This document shows positions 5,401 to 57,950 of a stretch of 64,000 nt of DNA, piece after piece. The stretch is from Asterionella formosa (lineage: Eukaryota). The notes beneath the pieces are model-generated. The model was not told the origin of the DNA. It did not search any database and saw only the letters and a program-made list of their open reading frames with translations. The position numbers and the translations under genes were made by a program. The stretch is taken from contig NKIB01009877.1 of assembly GCA_002256025.1 (NCBI GenBank), positions 1 to 64,000 of the forward strand, written 5' to 3'. How positions within the stretch are numbered: position 1 is the first letter of the stretch; each line of letters opens with the position of its first letter.

Positions 5401-6196
5401 AACGCAAAACGGCCAACGGCAGTTTTTCGTTGAATTTCCAAGAAGCATCCCAAAGGCTGTATGCGCAAAGAAAGAGGCTAAAAGCAAGAAACTCACCCCG
5501 ACAAAGGGGCGGACTCTGAAGGAGGCAAACAAATCTGGGCAGGGACGCAAGCCTCTCAATGGACCACACGCGATGTCCGACTGGGAAGTTTCCGACGGCG
5601 AAAGTGGTGTAGATGATAACGCCGAAATTGAAAATCGCAAGACAGTTAGCAAGGCAACGGTGGCACCACGCGTGCTCCCCCTGAAAGAGACGCAGGCCTT
5701 GGTCGCACGGATCAAGAAACTGGTAGGAATGTGGGCCGACGAAGAACAAATGAATGGCAACCGAGTCTTTTGTAAGTCGAAAGGATTGCACTTGATTGCT
5801 TCATTGTGTGCCGAACTCACCTTGTTTTATTGTTCCTCAGACTGGAACATTATCAGCCACGATGCCACGGCGGCGATTTGCGACGAAGTACCGACGACAG
5901 TGGCCGAACTCCATGGTTTAGGTGTTCTTGGAGAGAACGTCGTCAACGAGTACGGTGAACGCCTCGTGAAAAATATCAACGCTTTCATCGTAACAGAGAA
6001 TCTACAAAAATATATTGATAAGCGGCCTCTAAAACGTCCTAAAACCTCTGATTTCAGAGACCGAACGATCAACAGCTCCTCTATAACTACCGGCAATCCG
6101 GCTTTCGTTGCTAGCCTAAGCACTGAAGGCCAGGAAGTTGATGAGTTCGATTCTGAGATTGATTTTGGGGCAATTACTCTACCGCCTGGCGCTTAA
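2447..6196 (+). CDS. RecQ family (BLM/RecQ4A-like) DNA helicase with zf-GRF, helicase core, RQC and HRDC-like domains; probable intron 5772-5840
   Basis: FRPGQ, MPTGGGKSLCYQ, DEAHC, ATIAFGMGIDKPDVRFV, YYQESGRAGRDG, CRR..CDNC Zn motif, GRQFYKC zf-GRF. Removing the 69-nt GTAAGT..TCAG intron restores VFYWNI. Confidence 0.93.
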   Translation: MSESMQNNRMHHRDWYEKVIRQLQSSNDRCKQGIVAGFEYAIQPDGSSLAERQWEVRRNPTALQLEFTSSIKGVTDGLYQTSLQAIESSIAGSSRRNQQKSAYLENEKSKDGTMPTYPEGPAFLSPTRRIRNRHNAVYGQHLPNGLNSPGCAMKVFGNQGIQKDERDRIKSLLNESGGRNHNKENLPPQYPKKPTKFDMDIDVDDEFLAGIDLDHLIAQRGKHQLATQTAQIEFDHGVSNFHDGVYNRRSSFSELSVARAEYFSSKNYDTTSCNNNQTRVSHNSKGISGDTGSLGGTLSSPSMSYPDCEPPKASNSSDLTLGADKKSSFISFVDKGESCLEARNCVSHTDGRSSSGALLPFHTAQHETQLYSVASTAFMPSVGSSSDTPLCSGHNRPCRLLTANTSANAGRQFYKCQMPDGDQCDFFEWTNGQEGNWNNNEDFGDAHGSMYGDGSRILDIYQENRRKFGHITFRPGQKDVIEHAMKGQDVFVLMPTGGGKSLCYQLPAWCSPGLSIVISPLLSLIQDQVQSLTKLGVQSVFLNSAQDYETEQKVITARLFQATDHGGIKLLYITPEKLRHSNIIQNILKKLYERNLLSRFVVDEAHCMSDWAHDFRPDYGQLGMLRREFPNVPMMALTATANEKVVNDAIKALGMKNEYRFKSSFNRPNLHYEVRKKDGKSIEKIGEFIVSRPQDSGVIYCLSRKDCETVSEALQQKLNEKGCGHVRVSFYHAELDDQERTRRHHAWSSGKISVLCATIAFGMGIDKPDVRFVIHFSMPKSITHYYQESGRAGRDGAKADCILYYAYKDKKVLETMIRKGSNNPNNQSTRRKIDQLYTCLRYCENEFICRRTMQLEFFGEKFEKANCGKTCDNCKAGLEAERRNLTSVACQMLQLLQDISSQKNGRGVTMVQLTEIYKGSKSKSATKFLNVERLTGCGKGRAYSKSDLDRIAHAMIFDKILLETPEQNGGGYTADYITPGENALATQNGQRQFFVEFPRSIPKAVCAKKEAKSKKLTPTKGRTLKEANKSGQGRKPLNGPHAMSDWEVSDGESGVDDNAEIENRKTVSKATVAPRVLPLKETQALVARIKKLVGMWADEEQMNGNRVFCKSKGLHLIASLCAELTLFYCSSDWNIISHDATAAICDEVPTTVAELHGLGVLGENVVNEYGERLVKNINAFIVTENLQKYIDKRPLKRPKTSDFRDRTINSSSITTGNPAFVASLSTEGQEVDEFDSEIDFGAITLPPGA

Positions 6197-6569
6197 CCTA
6201 GTTCAACTACCGGAAGCCATGACTGTAACAAACAAACATCGCCCATGCACCGACCTGCGAACTTACTAAAATGCTGCCAAGCTTCGTACACTATATACCC
6301 TGCAGGTCTACTGGTGGTCCTGTTTGTCCTAAACGGTGTAGGAAGGAGACTGAAAGATTCTCGTGCACCATATCTGGAAATTGGCATTTTGTTCTACATA
6401 CACTGTTTTCTTAAGATCAGACTACCAGGTTCCGGTATTGCGGGTCGACTTGATGCCTAGACTATACCGGGTACAGTACCTCATACTCGGAGCACGGCTG
6501 TCAGCATGGGCTAATCTTCCTGGCACAACGAATACATATCATATTTACCTGTCACCCATTTTCTGGTAT

Positions 6570-7178
6570 TCGCCATGGTCTTCTCATACCAATATACACT
6601 ATAGGTAGTTTCGTTCTACTTAATGAAAGGAAATACCTTATCATTTACAAATATAATTCATATACCGGTATACAGTTATATGACTGCCATTGTAGAGTGA
6701 ATAAAAACGGGGATACGGGGACGTGAGAAAACAATTGTGAGTTGCTCCTCACGAAAACTAAACTTTACAACTAACCAACACACAGACAAGCGATTGAACT
6801 TGCATTGAATTCATTGACGACAGGTGGAACCTATTTAGCTTACCGATATGAATGTATCGTGTATAGCTACATCGCCATGGTCTTCTCATACCAATATACA
6901 CAATAGGTAGTTTCGTTCTATTTAATGAAAGGAAATACCTTATCATTTACAAATATAATTCATGTACCGGTATACAGTTATATGACTGCCATTGTAGAGT
7001 GAATAAAAACCGGGATACGGGGACGTGAGAAAACAATTGTGAGTTGCTCCTCACGAAAACTAAACTTTACAACTAACCAACACACAGACAAGCGATTGAA
7101 CTTGCATTGAATTCATTGACGACAGGTGGAACCTATTTAGCTAACAAGGTACCGATATGTATGTATCGTGAATAGCTT
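6570..7178. repeat. Tandem duplication, unit about 302 bp, two near-identical copies
   Basis: TCGCCATGGTCTTCTCATACC... starts at both 6570 and 6872 and stays aligned with few differences. Confidence 0.92.
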
Positions 7179-11837: not shown

Positions 11838-12163
11838 TATGACATGTAACATTAACTTTGTCATCAGTTGTCAGTACAGTTCGCATATACTCATACTGGT
11901 CATTGAGAATTTTCTATGAAGTACTTAGCAACTTTGTTTTCACTAGTTTTGGTCGTCTCAGTTGACCCCGCACCAAGTTCCATGGCTGCACGCTATGTTG
12001 AGTCGTGCCCTAGAGAGTGGCATTTAATTATTATGCGAAATACTATAGCTTTCAATGGCTGGTGAAAATCCGCATCCCCTCCTCTTCCTCGAAACCTCAG
12101 ACGCGCCAGGCAAATGGAAGTGTAAGAGTAAATTAGGTTTTGCGGCAACTGCTAATTATTATC

Positions 12164-13747
12164 TCAATAAGGTCCCCTTCTCGGTCTAGTCACTGAACGA
12201 ATTCCAGACTCAAGCATACCTACAACGGTAAATGTTCCACCGATAATCGCCATTAATGATGTGATGTAGTCATACAAAGGTCGTGACTTGAGCGAATAGG
12301 TGACTGCAATTGGGCTGAGGTCAACAATAAATTTTGCTTCAGGAACCTGATCGGTATTGTAAAAGGCAATCTGACTAGATTGCAACACCTGATACGACAT
12401 TAGATTTGTTGATATCAGTTTCAAGTAGTGATGGTGTGCCTCATGGAGTTCATCAGTGATATACACATTTTCATTCATGGGCATCGTGGTATGTTTAAAA
12501 TTGGATGGCAAAACGTTGCCCTGGCTGAGAGCGTGTTTGCTTGTCAACGTCAAATCACCAAATGAAAGTTCATGCACAATGTGAGAGACGTTGGTCATAT
12601 GGGGGGCCAATTCATGAGAAGGCGACCGAGCCTGAATGTAGAAATGCGACGGAGCCCGGTCCAAGAGTAGGACGCCACTCAATTGACAACCTGGATGCTC
12701 ATCTGGATTCCAGTTGTCTTTTACATTATGTCGCGTCCGCTCAAGAGATTCCGCCCATTGCCGTTCTTCCTCCGTCAGACCCATACGGCGTTTGGTTGCT
12801 TCTTCTGCATGCACCATGACACCTCCACCTTGCTCAAAGCTCGACTCGGCAACCGCCAAGTACTGTGTCATGCCCAAAACGGTTCGATGTCCATAATAGT
12901 CGCCGTATGGCTCACTATTGACAAAAAGTCGCAGGGTTGGATACCCCATAATTCCCTGCTGCATGCAAAGTTCGTGGTGAACCACACAGTCGACCTTTCC
13001 AATCAAAACGGGCATTTGCACCCTTTTGGCAGATTCATAGTCTGCGTCAGTATAATCGTCCTTGTGTAGACGAGATTCCGCTGCATCCAATACTACCTCC
13101 GCCAGAGTCTCCCAAGTCGGTGCCAATTGGCGACAGCTAGAGCGAAGAGATTTGATTTGGTAAGTTGGGTTCGATATTTTGCAAGAGTACGGCAGACAAG
13201 TGAAAGTTGCAGGCAGTGTTACTTACTGAGAGCACCATCCGGCGAAAAAATCTACAAATACAAATTGATAGTCATGTCTCGCATATTCCAGCGTCTCTTC
13301 ATTCAAGCTAACTGCGTCTTCTCCGTTCTTATGAAGCTGTTCCAATGAATCAGTAACCTTCGAATCGTGAAGTTCCACATCGTGTTGCAACATGTTGCGA
13401 TGAACGAATTGTTGCTGAATTCCTTTTGCATCGACTGTCCACTTTTGCACATTTTTGGTGACATTCTGTGCCTTGCCCAAGACGGACACGACATCAATGG
13501 TCGCGTACTCGCAGGTGAGATCGACCATGGTGATGTTGAAATTGACCCTGATACGTTTTTCCTTGTTGCGATCCAATGAAAGGTTCGTTACCAGGCGGTG
13601 CTCGAAGTATGCTTTGGTCTCCCAAAAGAACAAGGTGATCATCGTGCAAATTGCAATCCAGGAAATGATGGATCCCTGCCGGGATCCTTCCAGGAGATCA
13701 TTTGGCACCTTCCGGTACATGTCGAGGCCCGCTAGCATACGAGCCAT
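12164..13747 (-). CDS. ERGIC3/Erv46-like protein with inserted thioredoxin domain (PDI-C type); intron 13137-13226
   Basis: ERGIC_N motifs (LDMYRKVP.DL, NFNITM.DL.CEYATIDV), spliced WCSHC active site, GYPTLRLF, and COPII-ERV C-terminus (GCQLSG, NVSHIVHELSFG, AIIGGTFTV). Confidence 0.92.
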
Positions 13748-13766
13748 TGCACAAGTTGTTGGTTGA

Positions 13767-14069
13767 TGTTGATGGGGGCTATTTCTTGATGAGCTGCATC
13801 AATACTAGGGCAGAGCAGAAGCACTGTAGAGCAGTCGTAAATGGCAAGTGGAAGAGGATAGGCAGGACAGAGTGATCAATAGGATTGTCGGCGGATTGTT
13901 AGTATTAATACCTGCGTCCAGTGCACCGCGCGAGCACAGTGCAGACCAGACCAGTGTAACCACCAGATTTGGTACATCTAGTTACACCAGCAATCATGCC
14001 CCAATGACAGCAGTAGAATAAACATAATATTGTAGCTCACCTTAGTTATTGACAAGGTTCCCCTCAACA
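13767..14069 (+). repeat. Putative 5' LTR (303 bp)
   Basis: Terminal inverted repeats TGTTGATGGGG...CCCCTCAACA, AATAAA at 14017, about 180 bp upstream of the gag ATG (14251). There is no second copy to confirm the boundaries. Confidence 0.6.
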
Positions 14070-17000
14070 GAGCTACAATATCTGTTCTTCCTCCCTTCGT
14101 CTCCCTCGACGTTGCGGCTTCTTCTCTTTGCTCGTCCATAGCAAATCCACCGCAGTGCACATGAGCATTCGATCAAGCACCTGATTCCTAATATCACCGG
14201 CTTTCTTGCTGCATCTCCAGCACCTTTCAAACACTGCGTCCTCCATCCGAATGGCGGCTCCCTTGTCTTCATCAGTCTTCTCTTTCCGTCATCCGCTTTT
14301 AACGCCGATTGTTGGTAAACCCACGGTCCCCACTGTCACCCAGTTAAAAAAAGAGATATTTGCCAATGCCCGCTCAGTCCACTGCAGCACTGGTGGTGGT
14401 GGTACAAATGATTTCCTTGGGATTTTCATGGCTCCTGCACCTTACATCTTACGTGCCGGTGAAGCTTTTGTTCCCCCTACCCATCCTGGCAACCAGCCCA
14501 ATCATCTTCCAACTGCTACTCAATCCCAAATCACTGCGGCAAATCGTCAGTATGATAACCTCCTTGAATCTTATCGTTGCTATACTCAAGTCCGTGAGGC
14601 AGCCACTTTGCCAACAAATTCTTCTTGCCATTGATACTACCTAATACCATGTTCTTGAGGATGAAACATTTGGCTATGCTGATGTCACTGTTCTTGCCCT
14701 CCTTACTCATTTGGAGACAACATATGCTACTTTGAGTGCCGACGATTTAGAATTGAATCGTATGCGCCTCGCTGACATACTATGGAATCCCGACAAACCC
14801 CTAGAAAACTTATGGATCCGTATTAAACACCTCCGTGCTGTTGCAATTGCTGGCGGCGAACCTTTATCAGATAGCCCCGTCACGAGATTGACACTATCTG
14901 CTTTAGAACAGGCAGGGTTATACACTCACAGCATCTGCACCTGGTGTGATTGTCATGAACATGATCGTATTTGGGCGAATTTGGTCCGCATTTCACTCAT
15001 GGCGAAAAAGAACGTCTCCGTTCCTTAACTGCTAATACAGCAGCCTATCATGGTGCACATGCTGTTCTTCATCATTTGAGTCCTGCCCACCACATGCCAT
15101 TGCTTCATCTTCTCTCACTGGTTTGGCTGCCGCTGCTTAAGGAGTTACTAACAAATATTCTTGCAACAACATTCCCCTGGGATACTGTTGGATGCATGGT
15201 CTTACAAAAAACCACGGACACACTAGTGCCACATGTGCAAACCCTGTCTCGGGCCATCAAACAACCGCCACACTTGACAAATGCATGGGCAGCAGTGGTC
15301 GCATGTTTAGTGATGGAACTCGACGCAACCGCCCTTCCGCTACTAGTCTCAATACGGCTGTCAACCCCATTTCACCTGCCTGACCAGGAGGGAAGCAAGT
15401 CATGCTATTGGATAATACTAGTAAACCTAGTTTATCTGCTATGCCCACTTGTCCCCCCATCACGTTAATTGCAGATTCTGGTAGTTCCGGCAACTATACC
15501 ACCTTGGACCTACCTGTGGTTAACCAGCGCCCGTCCTCCTGCCCTGTCACAATTCAACTTCCCAACGGCAAGCAAATAGTGTCAATACATGAGGCTGAAC
15601 TCGATATTCCTATGCTTCTTCCTGCTGCACGACATGTCCATCTTGTTCCTGGATTACAAAACTGCTCCTTATTATCCATTGGTCAACTTTGTGACTCTGG
15701 CTATGAAGTAAAATTCACCAGTACCCATATGACAGTGTTATTAGATGATCAGTGCATTCTCCAAGGCCACTGCTCTGCATCCACCAAATTATGGCATGTT
15801 TCCTCCACCACCCCTGCACCCACTATTCCTGTCCCAATCAACTTTACGGCCGCCGCCATCAGTACCACACCCAAAGCTGCCAACCTTGTTGCTTTTGCGC
15901 ATGCCACGCTGTTTTCCCCAGCCATATCGACATTGGAAAAGGCCCTTGTCAATGGGTACCCCAAATTCCCTGGTTTAACTTTACTAACCCTGCGAAAACA
16001 CCCCCCACATTCCATTGCCACCATTAAAGGCCACCTTGATCAGACCAGACAAAACCAGCGATCCACTCAACTCCCACCGATAATCCCTGATCATGCCCCC
16101 ACTCTACCATGTCCAATTGATACAGATGTGCGTCCCACTGACAATGAGATTCACACGCACATGTGTTACGCTGCAGTTATGGCCCCTACTGGCCAAATCT
16201 AAACAGATCAAACTGGAAAATTCGTCCAATCGTCCAGCACTGGTAATAATGATGTCATGATGTTGTATGATTTTGATAGCAACTTCATTTTCATGCACCC
16301 ATTCCGCAATCGCACTGCCCCTTGCATCCTTGAGGCTTACAAACACCTCCATCAATGCTTATGCAAAGCCGGTCTTCGCCCACAACTTCAATGCTTAGAC
16401 AATGAATGTTCCACACTGCTCAAGGATTTCATGGATATGGAATCCATTGATTTCCAGTTAGTGCCCCCTGCAGTCCATCACTGCAATGCGGCTGAACAGG
16501 CAATCCGCACCTTCCAGAATCATTTTATTGCCGGATTGTGCAGTGTTGACAAAGATTTCCCCCTTCACCTGTGGGATTAACTCTTGAACCAGGCTGAACT
16601 CACCCTCAATTTACTCTGGGGATCACGGATCAATCCCAAATTGTCTGCATGGGCCCAAGTGAATGGATTGTATGATTACAATCGTACTCCATTGGCACCC
16701 CCTGGATGTAGGGTTCTTGTTCATGCTAAACCGCAACAATCCAATACATGGTCCCCACATGCCCTTGACGGCTGGTATGTGGGCCCTGCTGTTGATTCTT
16801 ATCGTTGCTATTGAGTATGGATGTGGGACACCAGGTCCACGCGTATTTGCGATACGGTGTCCTGGTTCCCTACCAAAGTGGCCTTACCTACTAATTCTTC
16901 TGCTGACATTATTGCTACCAGTTTACAAGATATTGTGCATGTGCTGGCCAACCCCACTTCCCGCTCTCCTGTTAATCCCCTTCCACACACGCACAAAGCT

Positions 17001-17230
17001 GCTTTACAACAGCTCCTTGACATTATGTTGGTACCCCTCCCTGATGCCACCAGCACAAAATGCTCTCCTGTTCCATCACTGAGGGTGCAAAGTGCACCGG
17101 AGCTGCCAGCCACTCCAAAAATTCATATCATCCCCGAGTCTGTTGTCCCCAATCCTCTGCCACCACCATCATACCATACCCCTGTCCAATTACTGAGGGT
17201 GCCCCCCCCCCTCCATGAATGCAAGTGTTG
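13767..17230 (+). mobile_element. Diatom-type Ty1/Copia LTR retrotransposon, degenerate and 3'-truncated (putative 5' LTR, gag, protease, integrase; no RT or 3' LTR seen)
   Basis: Gag (LTPIVGKPT..EIFANARSV, knuckle CWMHG..HTSATC), protease IADSGSS, integrase (DQTGKF, LDNECS, QLVPP..H..NAAEQAIRTF, GWYVGPA). Several stops and frameshifts. Confidence 0.88.
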
Positions 17231-17599
17231 ATAATCCTCTTTTAGGTGTGGACCTTCAAACTGACAATCGTACCCCGCTCGCCAGCACCTATGACTTCGA
17301 AACAAGTCTGCCAGGGCACCAACAACGTCAACTAATACGCAAATCTCTGCGCGCAATCACGCCAGCCGCATTGAACAAGCGCACCATACGCACCCTGTGC
17401 ACCAGTATAGTCAAACATTTGCAAAAGCCGGGAGGGACCACTTTAGCTAGTTGAGGCTAAGGGAAATTTAGATAATTGTTAAATGTAGTTAGCAAATAGA
17501 GTCTGATCTTGCGATCAGCCTTGATTCCTAACTTATCAACTTGTTCTTCCTCTGTACTGCCATATAGAAAATGATTCCGGGATTGCCACCTTCCCATCC

Positions 17600-19000
17600 C
17601 AAGCAACAAAGGTCAACATTTTGAAAACAAAGGTTGTTATCCATGTCACAGCGGTACCGCTATTTGAATTTATGTGTCTTTCCTGAACGTAGATGGAATT
17701 TGATTTTCCCCAGATTTTACTGGCTGGATGACCTTGAAACAGAGCAAATGGATAGTGTTTCCTTAATCAGTTGATTCCATTAAATTTATTCATGACCACT
17801 ATCGTACTCTTTGATTTCCTGGTTGCATTGGATCTATTGATTGTGTTCATTTCTTTTGGAATTGCTGTCTTGCTGGACTACTCACTGCCTCAATGCAAGG
17901 GAAAGGAGAAGGCACCAACTCATGCCTTTCAAGTCATAGTTTCATATACAAAGAAAGTTCTTCCTGTTTCAAATGTTCATTTTGGTTGTGACAATGACAA
18001 AACCAGAGCAAGATTCAATGCAGCAATCACAAACTTGATAAACCTGGCAAACATTTGGAGGAACAGTTTCTGGGAGGATTACTACCTTCAAACAAGATGG
18101 AACTTCTGGAATTGAGAGGGGATTCTATTTTATTTGTGATGGAGGATACCATACATGCCCGCAGCTGATGCTCCCACTGCTGCAACTGAAAAGCAAGCAT
18201 ATATGAATAGGAGAGTTAATTTAGTTAATCAATCATACAGACAGGCAGGCCATCAAAAGAAATGAAATTTTCTGGAGCTAATTAATCATAAAATTACTAC
18301 TAAATCATTCACAAACACTACCGGTATTTTCATCATCATCCTCATCAGATGATGAGTTTCTGTCCTCAGGAGAGCATACAGTATCAGCATTCAATGCTTT
18401 ATCGATGAAAAAATTCTTTTGAGTGGCTGGTACTGGTGGAATTTCTATTATTTCCCACCTCGCAAGCAGTTCCACCAATACTTGGTACAGCTGCAGGAAA
18501 GACATTAGCAATGTGAATCTGAAGGAGGAATTCCCATACAGATAAGTTTGCAGAATTGGCCTACTTGATTGCATCCATTTGATTCTTTTCCACACATGTC
18601 GTTGCAGCCTTACTACTAGCTCTCATCAATGCAGCTCTATTCCTCTGATTAACATGATCCACACTTGTTGATTGTTTTGCTTCCAATGCCTGCCTGCCTG
18701 CCTCTTCACACTCTTATCTTCATGTCTTTGCTCATTACAGCTCTTGAGTTTGTGTTTAAGAGAATCAACATTTTTATCAAGATAAATTGCACTTGAACTT
18801 GCTGTCCCATCTGCCATTTGTGCTATAATGGGATAATTACGGAATGCCCTGAATGCCACAACGTTGAGTGGGTAAAAATATTCTGGAAAATCTTCTAGCT
18901 TTGCATTATTGATGCCAGAAGAAGTATTCCTGCTGTTCTCTTTCTTCCTCTGGTTTCTGGTATTAGCAATTGACTTCTTGTTCTTGATGAACACCCAAAT
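17600..19000. mobile_element. Degenerate Harbinger/Plant_tran-like transposon relic (transposase fragment on +, convergent second-ORF relic on -)
   Basis: Fragments HFGCDNDKTRARF and GFYFICDGGYH.CPQLM resemble DDE catalytic regions; broken convergent ORFs at 18305-18994. Confidence 0.5.
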
Positions 19001-20314: not shown

Positions 20315-22044
20315 ATGTCAATGGTCTATGGTACGTAGGTAATAGCATAGCTCACTGGTCGGAATAGGGCTTCCGAAGCAGATTTGATCAGATCTCACCC
20401 CCATCTTCGCGCTCGCTTGATCCATTAGATGAATACGGTCGCCCCTTCATCATCCTGAAGGAGCAGCAGGCAAAGGCCCGTGTCAAGGGCCTCGAAGCGA
20501 CGAAGTCCAACATCCTCGCTGCACGATCCATCACACGCATCCTTCGAACGTCATTGGGCCCCAAGGGCATGGACAAGATGCTCGTCAGCCCCGATGGCGA
20601 CGTCACGATCACCAACGACGGAGCCACGATCATGGAGAGAATGGAAGTGCAGCATCAAGTGGCCAAGCTCCTAGTTGAGCTTAGCAGCAGTCAAGATGAA
20701 GAGATTGGTGATGGCACCACTGGTGTGGTCGTCTTGGCAGGAGCTCTCTTGGAACAGGCGGAAAAACTATTGCAAAAGGGCATTCATCCTGTTCGTGTGG
20801 CGGAAGGATTTGAACGGGCGGCGCAGATCGCTATTGATACGCTGGCAGAGATCGGAGATCGCATTGAATTTACCAAGGACGATGTTCAGCCTTTGATCAA
20901 GACGGCATCTACCACGCTCAACTCAAAAATTATTCACAATCATAAGGAACACATGGCTGAAATTGCTGTCAGGGCTGTCTTAAGTGTGGCGGATCTCGAC
21001 CATAATGACGTCAACTTTGATATGATTCGCATGGAAGGGAAACCTGGTGGAACTCTGGAGGAGACGGAACTTGTCAATGGTATTGTCATTGACAAGGAAA
21101 TTAGTCATCCTCAAATGGCAAAGTCCATTAAAGATGCAAAAATATGTATCTTGACTTGCCCGTTTGAACCTCCAAAGCCAAAGACGAAGCACAAGTTGGA
21201 TATTACCTCCAAGGAAGCCTATGAACAGCTGTATCTACAAGAACAGCAATATTTTGTCGATATGGTTCGGCGTGTCAAGGATTCCGGAGCTAACCTTGTC
21301 ATTTGTCAGTGGGGATTTGACGATGAAGCCAATCATTTGCTGCTACAAAACAAGTTGCCCGCTGTGCGTTGGGTGGGCGGGGTCGAGATCGAGCACATTG
21401 CCATTGCCACCGGAGGACGAATTGTCCCTCGATTCGAAGAGCTATCGGAAGACAAGCTTGGCAAATGTGGCATGGTCAGAGAAATTTCTTTTGGTACAAA
21501 CAGCAAAGAACGAATGCTTGTTTTGGAAGACTGTGCCAACTCGAATGCTATTACTGTCTTAGTCCGCGGTGGAAACAAGATGATTGTTGAAGAAGCAAAG
21601 CGTTCCTTGCACGATGCCATGTGCGTTGTCAGAAATCTCATCAAGGACAACAGAGTTGTTTACGGTGGAGGATCAGCGGAAATTGCTTGCAGTTTAGCTG
21701 TTCGTAAATTTGCTGATACTGTGTCTGGTGTAGACCAGTATGCTATCCGTGCGTTCGCTGAAGCACTAGAGGACATTCCCTTGGCATTAGCTGAAAATGC
21801 TGGCCTTTCTCCTATGGAAGAAGTTGCCGCATTAAAAGCTCGTCAAGTCATGGAAGGAAATCCAGTCATTGGTCTTGGCATCGTGGACCCCGTGAAGAAT
21901 CAAGATGGATACCACTCTGCCGATATGCGTGCCCTTGGAGTCTTCGAAACGTTGATTGGAAAGCAGCAACAGCTACAGTTGGCTTCGCAGGTGGTCAAGA
22001 TGATTCTCAAGATTGACGATGTCATTTCCATTCGCCAGTACTAG
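20315..22044 (+). CDS. CCT5: T-complex protein 1 subunit epsilon; intron 20331-20428
   Basis: Spliced N-terminus [64 protein letters not shown]. Confidence 0.97.
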
Positions 22045-23915: not shown

Positions 23916-24310
23916 TGTCAGGTACACATAGCACATTGGCATGTAGCTCCTACGGGCAAGCGATGGAAGTAGTGATCCCAACTACTGTAATATACTCACT
24001 GCCTGATCAAGGATGGGGTCACACAAAACCTCGTGGGGAGTAATCCTCCTTTGTGTGATAGACTGGGACTACCTCCAGGTCTAAGTCTATTGGGTACATA
24101 GCCATATGGAGGGACTGCATCTATATGTACGTTGTGATGTGGGAAGCAGGAGTCGTTTGGCAAATGCGATGCTGCAGGAGCATAATAAACCTGCTCGGAT
24201 CCATGCACCAACCAGGAGTAACGCACCCGGAGGGCACGGGAAGCTATTTCCCAGCAGCAATGGACCACCTGACCCTTAGGGAAGAGGCCTAGAGTAATCT
24301 AGAACCTGAC
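23916..24310 (+). repeat. 5' LTR
   Basis: Direct repeat of 27501-27899, roughly 95% identical by eye. Confidence 0.95.
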
Positions 24311-27500: not shown

Positions 27501-27899
27501 GGTCAGGTACACATAGTACATTGGCATGTAGCTTCTACGGGCAAGCGATGGAAGTAGTGATCCCAAGAACTACTGTAAAATACTCACTGCCTGACCAATG
27601 ACGGGGTCACACAAAACCTCGTGGGGAGTAATCCTCCTTTGTGTGATAGACTGGGACTACCTCCAGGTCTAAGTCTATCGGGTACGTAGCCATATGGAGG
27701 GACTGCATCTATATGTACGTTGTGATGTGGGTAGCAGGAGTCGTACAGCGAATGCGATGCTGCAGGAGCATAATAAACCTGCTCGGATCCATGCACCAAC
27801 CGGGAGTAACGCACCCGGAGGGTACAGGAATCTATTTCCCAGAAGCAATGGACCACCTGACCCTTAGGGAAGAGGCCTAGAGTAATCTAGAACCTGACA
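27501..27899 (+). repeat. 3' LTR
   Basis: Follows the polypurine tract and ends ACCTGACA before the TSD CATTT. Confidence 0.95.
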
Positions 27900-55728: not shown

Positions 55729-57950
55729 GAGCATCTCACTGCATCGACCAAATACCAAAGGAAATTGCAGTTAAAAATATCAAAATACGTCACTTGGTCG
55801 AGAAATTTTTATCAATAGTCGAAATTTCCATATTTTTTCCCACCGCATCGACCAAATCCTAAATACCGGTAGTTAAATCTCGCACCCAAACTTTTAGCAA
55901 GTAGAAATAGAAAAATATTGTCTTTTTATGTGTATTGTTGATATAGGGATGGGTACTGCATAGCTAGCTATATATACAAAAGATGAAACAATGAGCAATG
56001 ATAGCAACACATCAGATGATGATTGCCTCTACCATTTCCGCAAGATGCATCGTAAACAAAGAAATGAGAATGATGCAAACAAAAGACAAAATAGGGGAGG
56101 AAGTTCCAAGGTTGGCAAGTCTACTAACGTGAATCGTTTTCGCACAGAGTAGTATGGCAAGCTGTTGAAGGATGACTACTTTGGAGACAATCCAAGCAAG
56201 CAGTCTACTCTCCTGCACATCTCAGGAGGCGCTTCCAGATGCATCGTTTGTTATTTGAAAAGATTCTTGAAGATTTGGTTGAGGCTGATCCATACATTCA
56301 ACAGAAGGAGGATGCATTGGGTCTGGTCGTTTTTCGACACATCAAAAGTTAACCTCAGCGCTTCGAATGTTGGCTTATGGAACTTCGGCGGATCAGCTGG
56401 ACAACCTCACAAGAATGGATGAATTTACCACACTCCACAACCTAAAAGTTTTTTGTAACTCAATAATCAGCAGGTATGGCACGGCAAGCTGTTGAAGGAT
56501 GACTACTTTGGAGACAATCCAAGCAAGCAGTCTACTCTCCTGCACATCTCAGGAGGCGCTTCCAGATGCATCGTTTGTTATTTGAAAAGATTCTTGAAGA
56601 TTTGGTTGAGGCTGATCCATACATTCAACAGAAGGAGGATGCATTGGGTCTGGTCGTTTTTCGCCGCATCAAAAGCTAACCTCAGAGCTTCGAATGTTGG
56701 CTTATGGAACTTCGGCGGATCAGCTGGACAACCTCACAAGAATGGATGAATTTACCACACTCCACAACCTAAAAGTTTTTTGTAACTCAATAATCAGCAG
56801 GTATGGCACATAATATTTACGATCGCCTACAAAGGATGGCATGGCAATGGTTTTACGACTCCATTGCGAAATGATTTGATTGGGCACTTGCGGAGTCAAA
56901 ATGAGGATAAATAATATATAGTATTTGATTCAATTAAATGTCTTGACACTTAAGTTGTAAGTCGGAAACAATGAAATGATACTAGCAGAGTAATTGATAA
57001 CCAAATTAGTTAAAACTCTACTTGCTCAGCTTCTAGAATTGATTCATCAAAACCAGGAGAAGGTGACGGATAATTTAAAGCATCTACTTCAATGGAACTG
57101 CTAGACTCTAAGATATTCTTTTGGCCTTTTGGCTGCCAGTTTCCCAATTGTAGCATCTGTCTCCTCCATGGCTTCTTGTGCCTTCAAATCACACCACCTG
57201 TTGCTTCTGCTGATTCACTATTCATTGAAATAATCTTTAATAGGAACTCATTCCGTTGAGTTTTCACCTTTTTTCCAAGCATCATAACATGCTTTTGCTC
57301 AACGACAAGCTGAGCATTTGCAACATGCTTTTCATTCTTGGCTTCTTTTGCCCCCATGGTATGCAACTCAAACTTCAAATCATCAATATTCATTTTTGGT
57401 TGGTCCCGCACAAAACCACAAAGACCCTTTCACTTCGGGGTTTTCTTTAAAATACGCCAACACCCATCGTTAATAAACTCTTTACCTAGCCTTTTCCCTT
57501 TTCCTTCCGATTTAAATATCTCCATAGCTTCTTCACTGTATTTGTCTTCCGTCCATCCTGATTTTGGAACACTTGTCACCTTCGCAAAGAGGCCTCAGAA
57601 CTTTGTGACGTCTTGATTTGTTGTTCCCCAGCAAGCCCTTGCCATCTGGGATGATGAGACCTACTACAAAGATCTCAAACACCCGGACCCAAATCTTGCT
57701 TGCCTTTTGACCAGTCCCAGCAGTGATTGAGTCTTCACTGGCTGCAACCCAGGACCAAGTGAGAGCCTCGTCCTCGTCCTCTTCCTTCTCCCTAATACCA
57801 CCTGAACCCATCCTGATGATGTTGATGAGGATGTTGAATAGATTATGCGTATATGCATGTATCAACACTGAACTGACGCACTGATTGCTGTATTTGTCTA
57901 CTTGAAGATAGTACCAGTGAAAATACTGCAACATGAATCAATACTTGATC
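55729..57950 (+). mobile_element. Degenerate two-ORF PIF/Harbinger element (Plant_tran-type transposase on +, Myb/SANT-like ORF on -); right TIR not found
   Basis: Left TIR after TTA matches 23411. Transposase fragments DDYFGDNP, LRRRFQMHRLLFEKI, HQKLTSALRMLAYGTSADQLD. Minus strand EDEALTWSWVAASED....GTGQK..IW.RV. Confidence 0.85.
56156..56809. repeat. Tandem duplication, 327-bp unit, two copies
   Basis: Units start at 56156 and 56483 and differ by only about 4 substitutions. Confidence 0.95.

Follow-up and report, generated by a model that had tools for sequence, protein, structure and literature searches.

Covarying pairing at the LTR edge of a diatom Copia retrotransposon family points to self-primed reverse transcription

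The first 64,000 nucleotides of contig NKIB01009877.1 from the diatom Asterionella formosa (GenBank assembly GCA_002256025.1; the whole stretch is hereafter the window) contain the 5′ part of a Ty1/copia retrotransposon. Directly after its long terminal repeat (LTR) lies the exact complement of a segment inside that same LTR, in the place where a site complementary to a transfer RNA (tRNA) would be sought. The same pairing recurs at the same LTR edge in metagenomic relatives, where the paired sequences differ from element to element and stay complementary. We conclude that this family most likely begins reverse transcription by self-priming similar to that of the fission yeast element Tf1, with an R-U5 region of about 45 nt. 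An initial annotation of the window had suggested a self-priming loop analogous to that of Tf1 in this Copia lineage, and covariation, the position of the LTR boundary and the short R-U5 all argue for that suggestion.

In the window, ATATTGTAGCTC at 14027-14038 has its exact reverse complement, GAGCTACAATAT, at 14070-14081, with 31 nt between them. The sequence reads ...AGAATAAACATAATATTGTAGCTCACCTTAGTTATTGACAAGGTTCCCCTCAACA up to the LTR end at 14069 and continues directly with GAGCTACAATATCTG..., such that GAGCTACAATAT stands at offset 0 and 12 of 12 nt pair with the segment inside the LTR. There is no TGG, as expected of a site for a tRNA 3′ end, directly after 14069 in the window, and none of the stems of the window and its relatives begins with TGG. 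The perfect 12-nt complement and the missing tRNA-type primer binding site had both been reported in the initial annotation, and both hold. With up to one mismatch allowed, the two arms have no further occurrence in the window (0.22 expected; at least two in 2 of 100 shuffles). By simple arithmetic, 64 kb should hold about 0.3 perfect inverted repeats of 12 bp whose loops measure 20-90 nt. A lone 12-bp repeat is not rare, and its significance rests on its position and its conservation. The features of the junction are as follows.

13897..14069, plus strand: 5′ LTR of the truncated Ty1/copia element, 173 bp, TGTTAG...TCAACA (from the jump in DNA depth, loose contig ends and homology to the LTR end of the relative L021)
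13897..14022, plus strand: putative U3, variable among subfamilies (similarity to distant relatives begins only at 14023)
14023..14027, plus strand: conserved CATAA, candidate initiator or transcription start (from motif conservation)
14027..14038, plus strand: 5′ arm ATATTGTAGCTC, the paired part of the proposed self-primer (from exact complementarity, covariation and fold)
14039..14058, plus strand: predicted inner hairpin ACCTT/AAGGT, stacked on the primer duplex and resembling a U5 inverted repeat (U5-IR) (from the minimum-free-energy fold)
14059..14069, plus strand: single-stranded 3′ end of U5 with the LTR terminus TCCCCTCAACA (unpaired in the predicted fold)
14070..14081, plus strand: putative primer binding site, the 3′ arm complementary to 14027-14038, at offset 0 from the LTR

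The LTR end at 14069, where it had originally been placed, is confirmed by three independent lines of evidence, namely host contigs and two metagenomic relatives, L021 and L014. We compared one DNA run and three RNA runs of the host with window positions 12101-18100; these runs, like all 24 public runs considered, consist of assembled contigs, which cannot reveal RNA starts or ends. Six host DNA contigs match through 14069, beyond which they diverge from the window and from one another, the pattern that the outer edges of 3′ or solo LTRs should give. L021 has two LTRs (1602-1827 and 6111-6338, 97.8% identical, TGTTGA...TTCAATA), the first followed by the complementary arm and the second by flanking sequence. 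The 5-bp target duplication CATTG lies on both sides of L021, giving this relative the combination of TG...CA-type LTR ends (TGTTAG...TCAACA in the window) and 5-bp duplication that is a mark of Ty1/copia elements. The L014 contig breaks off precisely where the LTR ends.

The 5′ end of the LTR, not given in the initial annotation, lies at 13897 (TGTTAG...). Word depth in the host DNA run is about 717-759 up to 13900 and 106,244 in the bin 13901-14100, and a single-copy DNA contig stops at 13928. Four host DNA contigs carry polypurine-like ...GGTGAGGGT (...GGTGGTGAGGGT) before 13902, and in the 19 relatives inspected GGTGAGGGTG or a close variant lies directly 5′ of an LTR start reading TGTTGA, TGTTAA or TGTTGT. 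Two other candidate starts, 13757 and 13767, had come from a TGTTGA-like inverted terminal match and were rejected, as DNA depth and loose ends give 13897. Neither a 3′ LTR nor a second copy of the element is present within the window.

Scanning metagenomes with an alignment of 14 homologous proteins yielded 78 loci with 38-65% protein identity to the query open reading frame (ORF), and 41 of these show perfect pairing of 10-14 bp at the same LTR junction. A strict hairpin scan, which demanded CA[TC][TA]A ahead of the 5′ arm of a perfect inverted repeat (at least 10 nt, loop 20-90 nt), matched 38 of the 78 loci on the coding strand, none on the other strand, and a single place in the window, the 14027/14070 pair. 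The remaining three (L021, L027 and L074) pair at the junction behind variant upstream motifs. When the motif requirement was dropped, the 310,147 bases of related loci gave 72 perfect inverted repeats of at least 10 bp with loops of 20-90 nt: 41 with the motif (38 loci, three matched twice), 3 at the junction with a variant motif, and 28 unrelated repeats away from the LTR junction, about as many as expected by chance.

The other 37 loci divide into several groups. Pairing at the junction is imperfect in four, bulged in L054, L055 and L065 and with two mismatches in L060. L058 has lost its 5′ arm along with part of its LTR, and in L020 and L043 the junction is cut by contig ends. In the remaining 30 loci the contig extends no more than 1400 nt upstream of the protein match, too little to reach the junction; four of them (L013, L023, L028 and L053, with 1310-1400 nt) might barely include it, and show no hairpin at that place. 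Among loci that cover the junction none lacks all trace of pairing, these four being borderline. In blastn searches with the 5′ region of the window, 14023-14094 was the sole non-coding part conserved in distant relatives. Loose-motif matches without complementarity in L023, L028, L031, L038 (minus strand), L039 (at 2478) and L067 (at 12050) were dropped as chance. An Rfam scan gave four chance-level matches, all far below gathering scores, and no matching family.

Counting the window's own, 26 different stem sequences occur at this junction (25 from the strict scan, plus that of L074). Their 3′ arms include GAGCTACAATAT, GAACTAGACG, GACCTACTATAT, GTTCTAGCAAGA, GAGTTATATCAAT, GAAGTGTTTAATTT, AGATCTTAGTAAA, CATTGAAATAATT and GACATTACTGAT, each with an exact complement in its LTR. 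In a covariance-model alignment of 45 matches (38 distinct), 10 of the 12 base pairs are changed on both sides, none is changed on one side only and 97.4% of cells are paired; none of 500 shuffles was as good, and slid controls pair at 30-41%. This alignment was fitted to a structure model, which favors structure, while the exact-match scans are independent of the model. An independent MAFFT alignment of 10 sequences has 6 of 12 pairs changed on both sides, none one-sided and 94% of cells paired, again with 0 of 500 shuffles as good (slid controls, 25-42%). Compensatory covariation between the two 12-mers had been set in advance as a test of the self-priming proposal, and the relatives pass it strongly. 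These compensatory changes indicate that the junction pairing is under selection. They also bear on whether the window's repeat is a chance match beside a misplaced LTR end. Repeats of this kind are expected about 0.3 times per 64 kb, and the 310 kb of loci hold 28 unrelated ones of at least 10 bp; yet with the LTR end verified, the same pairing at 41 junctions, 26 stems and no shuffle that matches the covariation, we regard coincidence as refuted, its probability being close to nil.

A conserved hairpin need not serve priming. It could be a structural RNA element, acting in packaging, dimerization, nuclear export or control of polyadenylation, that overlaps a primer site used by a host RNA such as an internal tRNA fragment. 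U5-leader and U5-IR stems exist in tRNA-primed retroviruses and retrotransposons, and most of the diatom stems share ...TAGyTC, which resembles the start of a tRNA D-arm. A host primer would, however, keep its site constant, and the sequence abutting the LTR varies (GAGCTA, GAACTA, GACCTA, GTTCTA, GAGTTA, GAAGTG, AGATCT, CATTGA, GACATT), always with compensation in the LTR. As stems differ among elements, no single host RNA fits them all. The aligned leaders have no TGG and no second candidate site downstream, and the 5′ halves of the arms are A/T-rich, unlike the acceptor stems of cytosolic tRNAs. We therefore consider this explanation unlikely.

The predicted folds agree with pairing within a single RNA. 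All 12 elements that were folded form the long stem in their minimum-free-energy structure (z-scores −2.9 to −6.6). The inner hairpin ACCTT/AAGGT is invariant in the 10 closest sequences; four of its five pairs are changed on both sides, only in the wider, model-fitted alignment. It is predicted to be stacked in the window and in L002, L041, L017, L022 and L051, and other elements fold different inner hairpins. In the window and its nearer relatives the fold leaves the last 11-12 nt of U5 single-stranded. At the LTR terminus, CTTCAAyA is conserved; together with TGTTGA at the LTR start it makes up an inverted repeat.

Covariation cannot separate pairing within one RNA from pairing between identical RNAs, and element RNA might instead prime in trans, if a small RNA derived from the LTR, or the arm in the transcript of another copy, annealed to the site without intramolecular fold-back. 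Copies to supply such an RNA are abundant, the DNA word depth being 106,244 over the LTR and about 717 in single-copy sequence. But the short, constant loop and the predicted stacked inner hairpin appear suited to a compact intramolecular fold, and subfamilies with different stems share one host (the variant arm ATATTGTAACTC occurs in 15 host contigs), which would make trans priming between subfamilies error-prone. Priming in trans thus seems improbable to us, and priming from a folded-back 5′ end is the reading that we carry forward.

The layout of the junction is shared across the family: yCATAA, the first arm, a loop of 27-61 nt (mostly 30-37), CTTCAAyA at the LTR end and the complementary arm at offset 0. 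Of the 44 junction hairpins, 41 have CA[TC][TA]A ahead of the first arm; no hairpin on the opposite strand does. Counted from the C of yCATAA, the 3′ end of the arm is 16-18 nt away in all 24 cases measured, 17 nt in 20 of them and 16 nt in the window. Loops are 27-40 nt long in 36 of the 41 motif-bearing hairpins and 47-61 nt in the remaining five. The motif fits the published consensus of diatom initiator-like elements, for which CAY+1A and TCAH+1W have been proposed in the relevant passages of PMC4686930. Five host contigs diverge heterogeneously just before 14023, where conservation among relatives starts, and together these observations fit a U3/R boundary at CATAA. LTRs are only 106-281 nt long (median about 170), with 57-234 nt before the motif, leaving little room for a start site much farther upstream. 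In the window the LTR ends 46 nt after conservation begins at 14023, consistent with the very short R-U5, about 45 nt, that had been proposed at the outset. The AATAAA that the initial annotation placed 5′ of the arm is present at 14017-14022, but it is not conserved, and we rejected it as a conserved poly(A) signal since the relatives have no AATAAA.

These elements suggest the following course of events. Transcription would start at or next to the conserved CATAA, near 14024, and RNA nucleotides of about +4 to +15 (14027-14038) would fold back on the 12 nt that follow the LTR (14070-14081), with the small hairpin at 14039-14058 stacking on the primer duplex. The element's ribonuclease H (RNase H) would cut the RNA at the 3′ end of the paired arm, and the freed 3′-OH of an RNA of about 15 nt would prime minus-strand strong-stop DNA. 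That DNA would copy only the 31-nt loop, comprising the rest of R and U5, before its transfer to the 3′ R. A site at the position of the minus-strand primer's 3′ end that pairs and covaries with the element's own LTR, with no TGG, makes Tf1-like self-priming the best explanation of the junction. Plant self-primers have been recognized by a stretch of at least 10 bp in the 5′ LTR that can pair with a site 0-5 bp behind the LTR (methods-related passages of PMC6317226), and the window element has this signature too.

Several points weigh against this interpretation. Pairing alone is no proof of priming, given that tRNA-primed retroelements also have U5-leader hairpins. The arm begins 3-5 nt after the putative +1, where in Tf1 it is the first 11 nt that pair, and R would extend no more than 31 nt past the primer, which is very short. 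The relatives show no conserved poly(A) signal, none of the 78 loci has a poly(A) tail, and the subfamily of L054, L055 and L065 retains a bulged, imperfect duplex. The window copy is itself non-functional. A tRNA scan of the 64 kb found 0 tRNAs and so supplied no host tRNA for comparison with the 12-mer. Finally, what the sequences show directly is the pairing, its place at the LTR edge, its conservation and its covariation; the transcription start, the RNase H cut, priming, the extent of R and the poly(A) site are inferred, and contigs cannot map the 5′ or 3′ ends of RNA. RNA-library contigs cover 14068-17555 of the element; the element-to-gene depth ratio is similar in RNA and DNA, and one RNA run has some depth on a silent single-copy stretch, meaning that DNA carry-over is possible and transcription of the family is not established. 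Boundaries of repeats or variants fall at the contig ends 14068 and 14044, and we read these ends as assembly breaks rather than as RNA ends.

We next describe the coding part of the element, which consists of two decayed regions.

14251..15383, plus strand: gag region, degenerate, with frame changes near 14634-14645 and 14965-15028 (from the ORF list)
15384..17231, plus strand: protease-integrase frame with three in-frame stops, at 16200-16202, 16578-16580 and 16812-16814 (from the ORF list)

The gag region opens with an ATG at 14251 and changes frame several times downstream; other genomic copies, represented by host contigs, differ from it by indels at 14672, 14717, 14979 and 15086. A protease motif of the D[ST]G type is found from 15384 onward and the integrase core from 16203 onward. 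Pfam recognizes only SH3_retrovirus, a domain typical of Copia integrases, and only weakly, in the window's own ORFs. A tblastn search with the 1303-residue homologue P0001 covered residues 1-524 alone (15612-17165, 70% identity). The element is truncated before reverse transcriptase, at about 17400-17500, and lacks reverse transcriptase and RNase H; a single-copy DNA contig spans 17366-17842. The limited match to P0001 together with the missing second LTR identifies the window copy as a dead 5′ fragment, a non-functional, 3′-truncated Ty1/copia element consisting of a 173-bp LTR, gag, protease and integrase.

The class of the family is read from its longer relatives. The 272-residue protease-integrase ORF retrieves 94 longer proteins, and the named homologues all come from diatoms (Fragilaria crotonensis, Fistulifera solaris, Phaeodactylum tricornutum and Nitzschia inconspicua). 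Precomputed Pfam annotation assigns PF07727 (RVT_2) to 39 of the 94. Our own RVT_2 scan gave E values of 3e-4 (20.9 bits) for P0001 and 2.5e-5 (24.5 bits) for a second homologue, P0002, both below the curated cut-off of 31.6 bits. In P0001, SH3_retrovirus (367-423) precedes RVT_2 (840-957), and the consensus of the 14-protein alignment has the same order. The start of the window element and its full-length relatives thus display the Ty1/copia gene order of protease, integrase, reverse transcriptase and RNase H. The arrangement of Tf1/sushi elements, with integrase after reverse transcriptase and RNase H and with a chromodomain, was not found; integrase precedes reverse transcriptase.

Some contigs have unusual structures. 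In 14 relatives (L003, L004, L005, L008, L014, L019, L022, L027, L031, L032, L038, L052, L060 and L065) the contig end repeats its own start with 96.6-100% identity, at a period of about 5.3-5.5 kb (3.7 kb in L060) and with one LTR per unit. Either the assembly has collapsed two LTRs into one, or these are tandem forms or circles with a single LTR. L017, L040 and L062 have the same layout with only 78-85% identity. A 34-nt perfect inverted repeat at the start of L015 (1-132) is probably a fold-back assembly artefact. In RNA runs X10 and X9, one contig each joins 16363, in the integrase region, directly to 13902, at the LTR start; the join was not seen in the DNA run and may represent an internally deleted derivative in another strain.

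A host gene with ERGIC_N, thioredoxin and COPIIcoated_ERV domains occupies 12164-13747 on the minus strand; three RNA runs yield contigs from which its intron at 13137-13226 has been removed and which run as far as 13823-13885. The LTR start at 13897 is just 150 nt upstream of the ATG of this gene, placing the insertion in or next to its promoter. Beyond the element, in the region 17758-18100, a different high-copy repeat starts at about 17758, with a DNA word depth of 21,370 in 17701-17900 and loose ends before 17758. The ORF at 17756-18115 has no Pfam match; the segment 17957-18045, missing from RNA contigs, may be an intron. At 20554-22041 on the plus strand, an intact gene for a TCP-1/cpn60 chaperonin (Cpn60_TCP1, E 1.7e-162) confirms a eukaryotic host. 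Direct repeats of about 360 nt at 23917-24279 and 27502-27867, with 94-95% identity and a spacing of 3.6 kb, could be the two LTRs of another, smaller element; no self-priming signature turned up there in the strict hairpin scan. Tandem duplications of about 300 nt occur twice, at 56156-56782 and 6570-7145, with 98-99% identity.

Self-priming frees a retrotransposon from host tRNAs. Tools that locate primer binding sites as complements of tRNAs would miss or mis-bound these diatom elements, for which a more useful annotation signature would be the polypurine tract GGTGAGGGTG, an LTR of the form TGTTGA...CAAyA, yCATAA followed by an arm, and the complementary arm at offset 0. The short LTRs and R-U5 also raise the questions of how small R can be and still support strand transfer, and of where the poly(A) signal is located. 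Protein matches in the transformable diatom Phaeodactylum tricornutum make the mechanism testable. In the passages searched, no publication connects self-priming with the retrotransposons of diatoms. The terms tRNA, priming, hairpin and PPT do not occur in the main text of the paper describing CoDi elements; its single "PBS" is a wash buffer, and those of its "primer" passages that were displayed concern polymerase chain reaction or oligo-dT.

A wider reading is that an entire clade of diatom (stramenopile) Copia elements replicates without host tRNA, priming with the first ~15 nt of an initiator-driven transcript, with LTRs down to 106 nt and an R-U5 of about 45 nt. This state could have arisen independently of Tf1/sushi and of the plant TAR lineage, or could preserve an ancestral condition; hairpin priming has been proposed for the ancestor of LTR retroelements, as mentioned in PMC3601003. 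We put this forward tentatively, rating its chances at slightly under even.

The diatom elements resemble Tf1 and Tf2 of Schizosaccharomyces pombe, Tj1 and the Tf1/sushi group, all Ty3/gypsy chromoviruses, in that the LTR is directly followed by a site that can pair with part of the element's own 5′ LTR transcript. They likewise have no tRNA-type site; a neighboring stem-loop in U5, as in that group, is predicted for the window element and some of its relatives. In the passages of PMC7175516 and PMC4600332 that treat the subject, self-priming is demonstrated for Tf1 and proposed for Tj1 and for Tf1/sushi Gypsy elements: in Tf1 the primer site binds the first 11 bases and RNase H cleaves just behind them, between bases 11 and 12 (PMC7175516), and the primer site of Tj1 is complementary to the 5′ end of its mRNA (PMC4600332). 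On the same passages, experimental demonstration is so far confined to fission-yeast Gypsy-type elements. The diatom duplex differs from that of Tf1 in being 10-14 bp rather than 11, and it probably begins 3-5 nt after the start site rather than at +1. Unlike the Tf1 group, the diatom elements have integrase before reverse transcriptase, the latter probably of the RVT_2 type of the Copia superfamily, and much shorter LTRs (106-281 nt), and their self-priming is a prediction from sequence. The diatom element is thus outside the Tf1/sushi clade while probably working like Tf1.

The TAR lineage of plants shares the Ty1/copia superfamily and the same pairing of at least 10 bp at 0-5 bp from the LTR (PMC6317226). 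The initial annotation knew of no self-priming in Copia elements, a view that is out of date: self-priming has been proposed for the rice Copia families Houba and Osr-1, members of TAR, and is predicted for 89% of the 203 plant TAR elements examined (Neumann 2019, PMC6317226 and its supplement file 3, in the parts concerned with this lineage). The hosts differ, land plants as against diatoms, as do the sizes, a mean of 6.3 kb for TAR (PMC6317226, supplement file 3) against units of about 5.3-5.5 kb. The two are likened here by signature, not by phylogenetic placement, and the passages on TAR in PMC6317226 contain no covariation analysis. The 26 covarying stems stand as strong comparative evidence for self-priming in Pseudoviridae outside plants.

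Other Copia elements also lack a conventional primer site. Some are primed by half-tRNAs, as copia and Ty5 are. Osser, Bryco and Bianca are further half-tRNA-primed Copia elements, and their primer sites, like that of the diatom elements, do not start with TGG (PMC6317226, in its treatment of half-tRNA priming). Their site does not vary and pairs with an internal stretch of tRNA-Met or tRNA-Ile, whereas the diatom site varies and covaries with the LTR. The fungal GalEa elements, as portrayed in the pertinent passages of PMC5445492, share with the diatom family the lack of a tRNA-type site and a conserved hairpin with a variable loop at the expected position. Both arms of their Conserved Hairpin Site lie at or downstream of the LTR edge, the first being a palindromic 9-bp sequence that includes the last LTR base, and no U5 complement was found there. 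The diatom junction does not have this arrangement; its partner arm is inside the LTR, 27-61 nt upstream of the LTR end, and its arms are non-palindromic except for AGATCT in L068 and L075. Set beside these systems, the diatom Copia clade appears to be a new, well-supported addition to the self-primed LTR retrotransposons, not unprecedented within Copia and distinguished by unusually short LTRs and R-U5.

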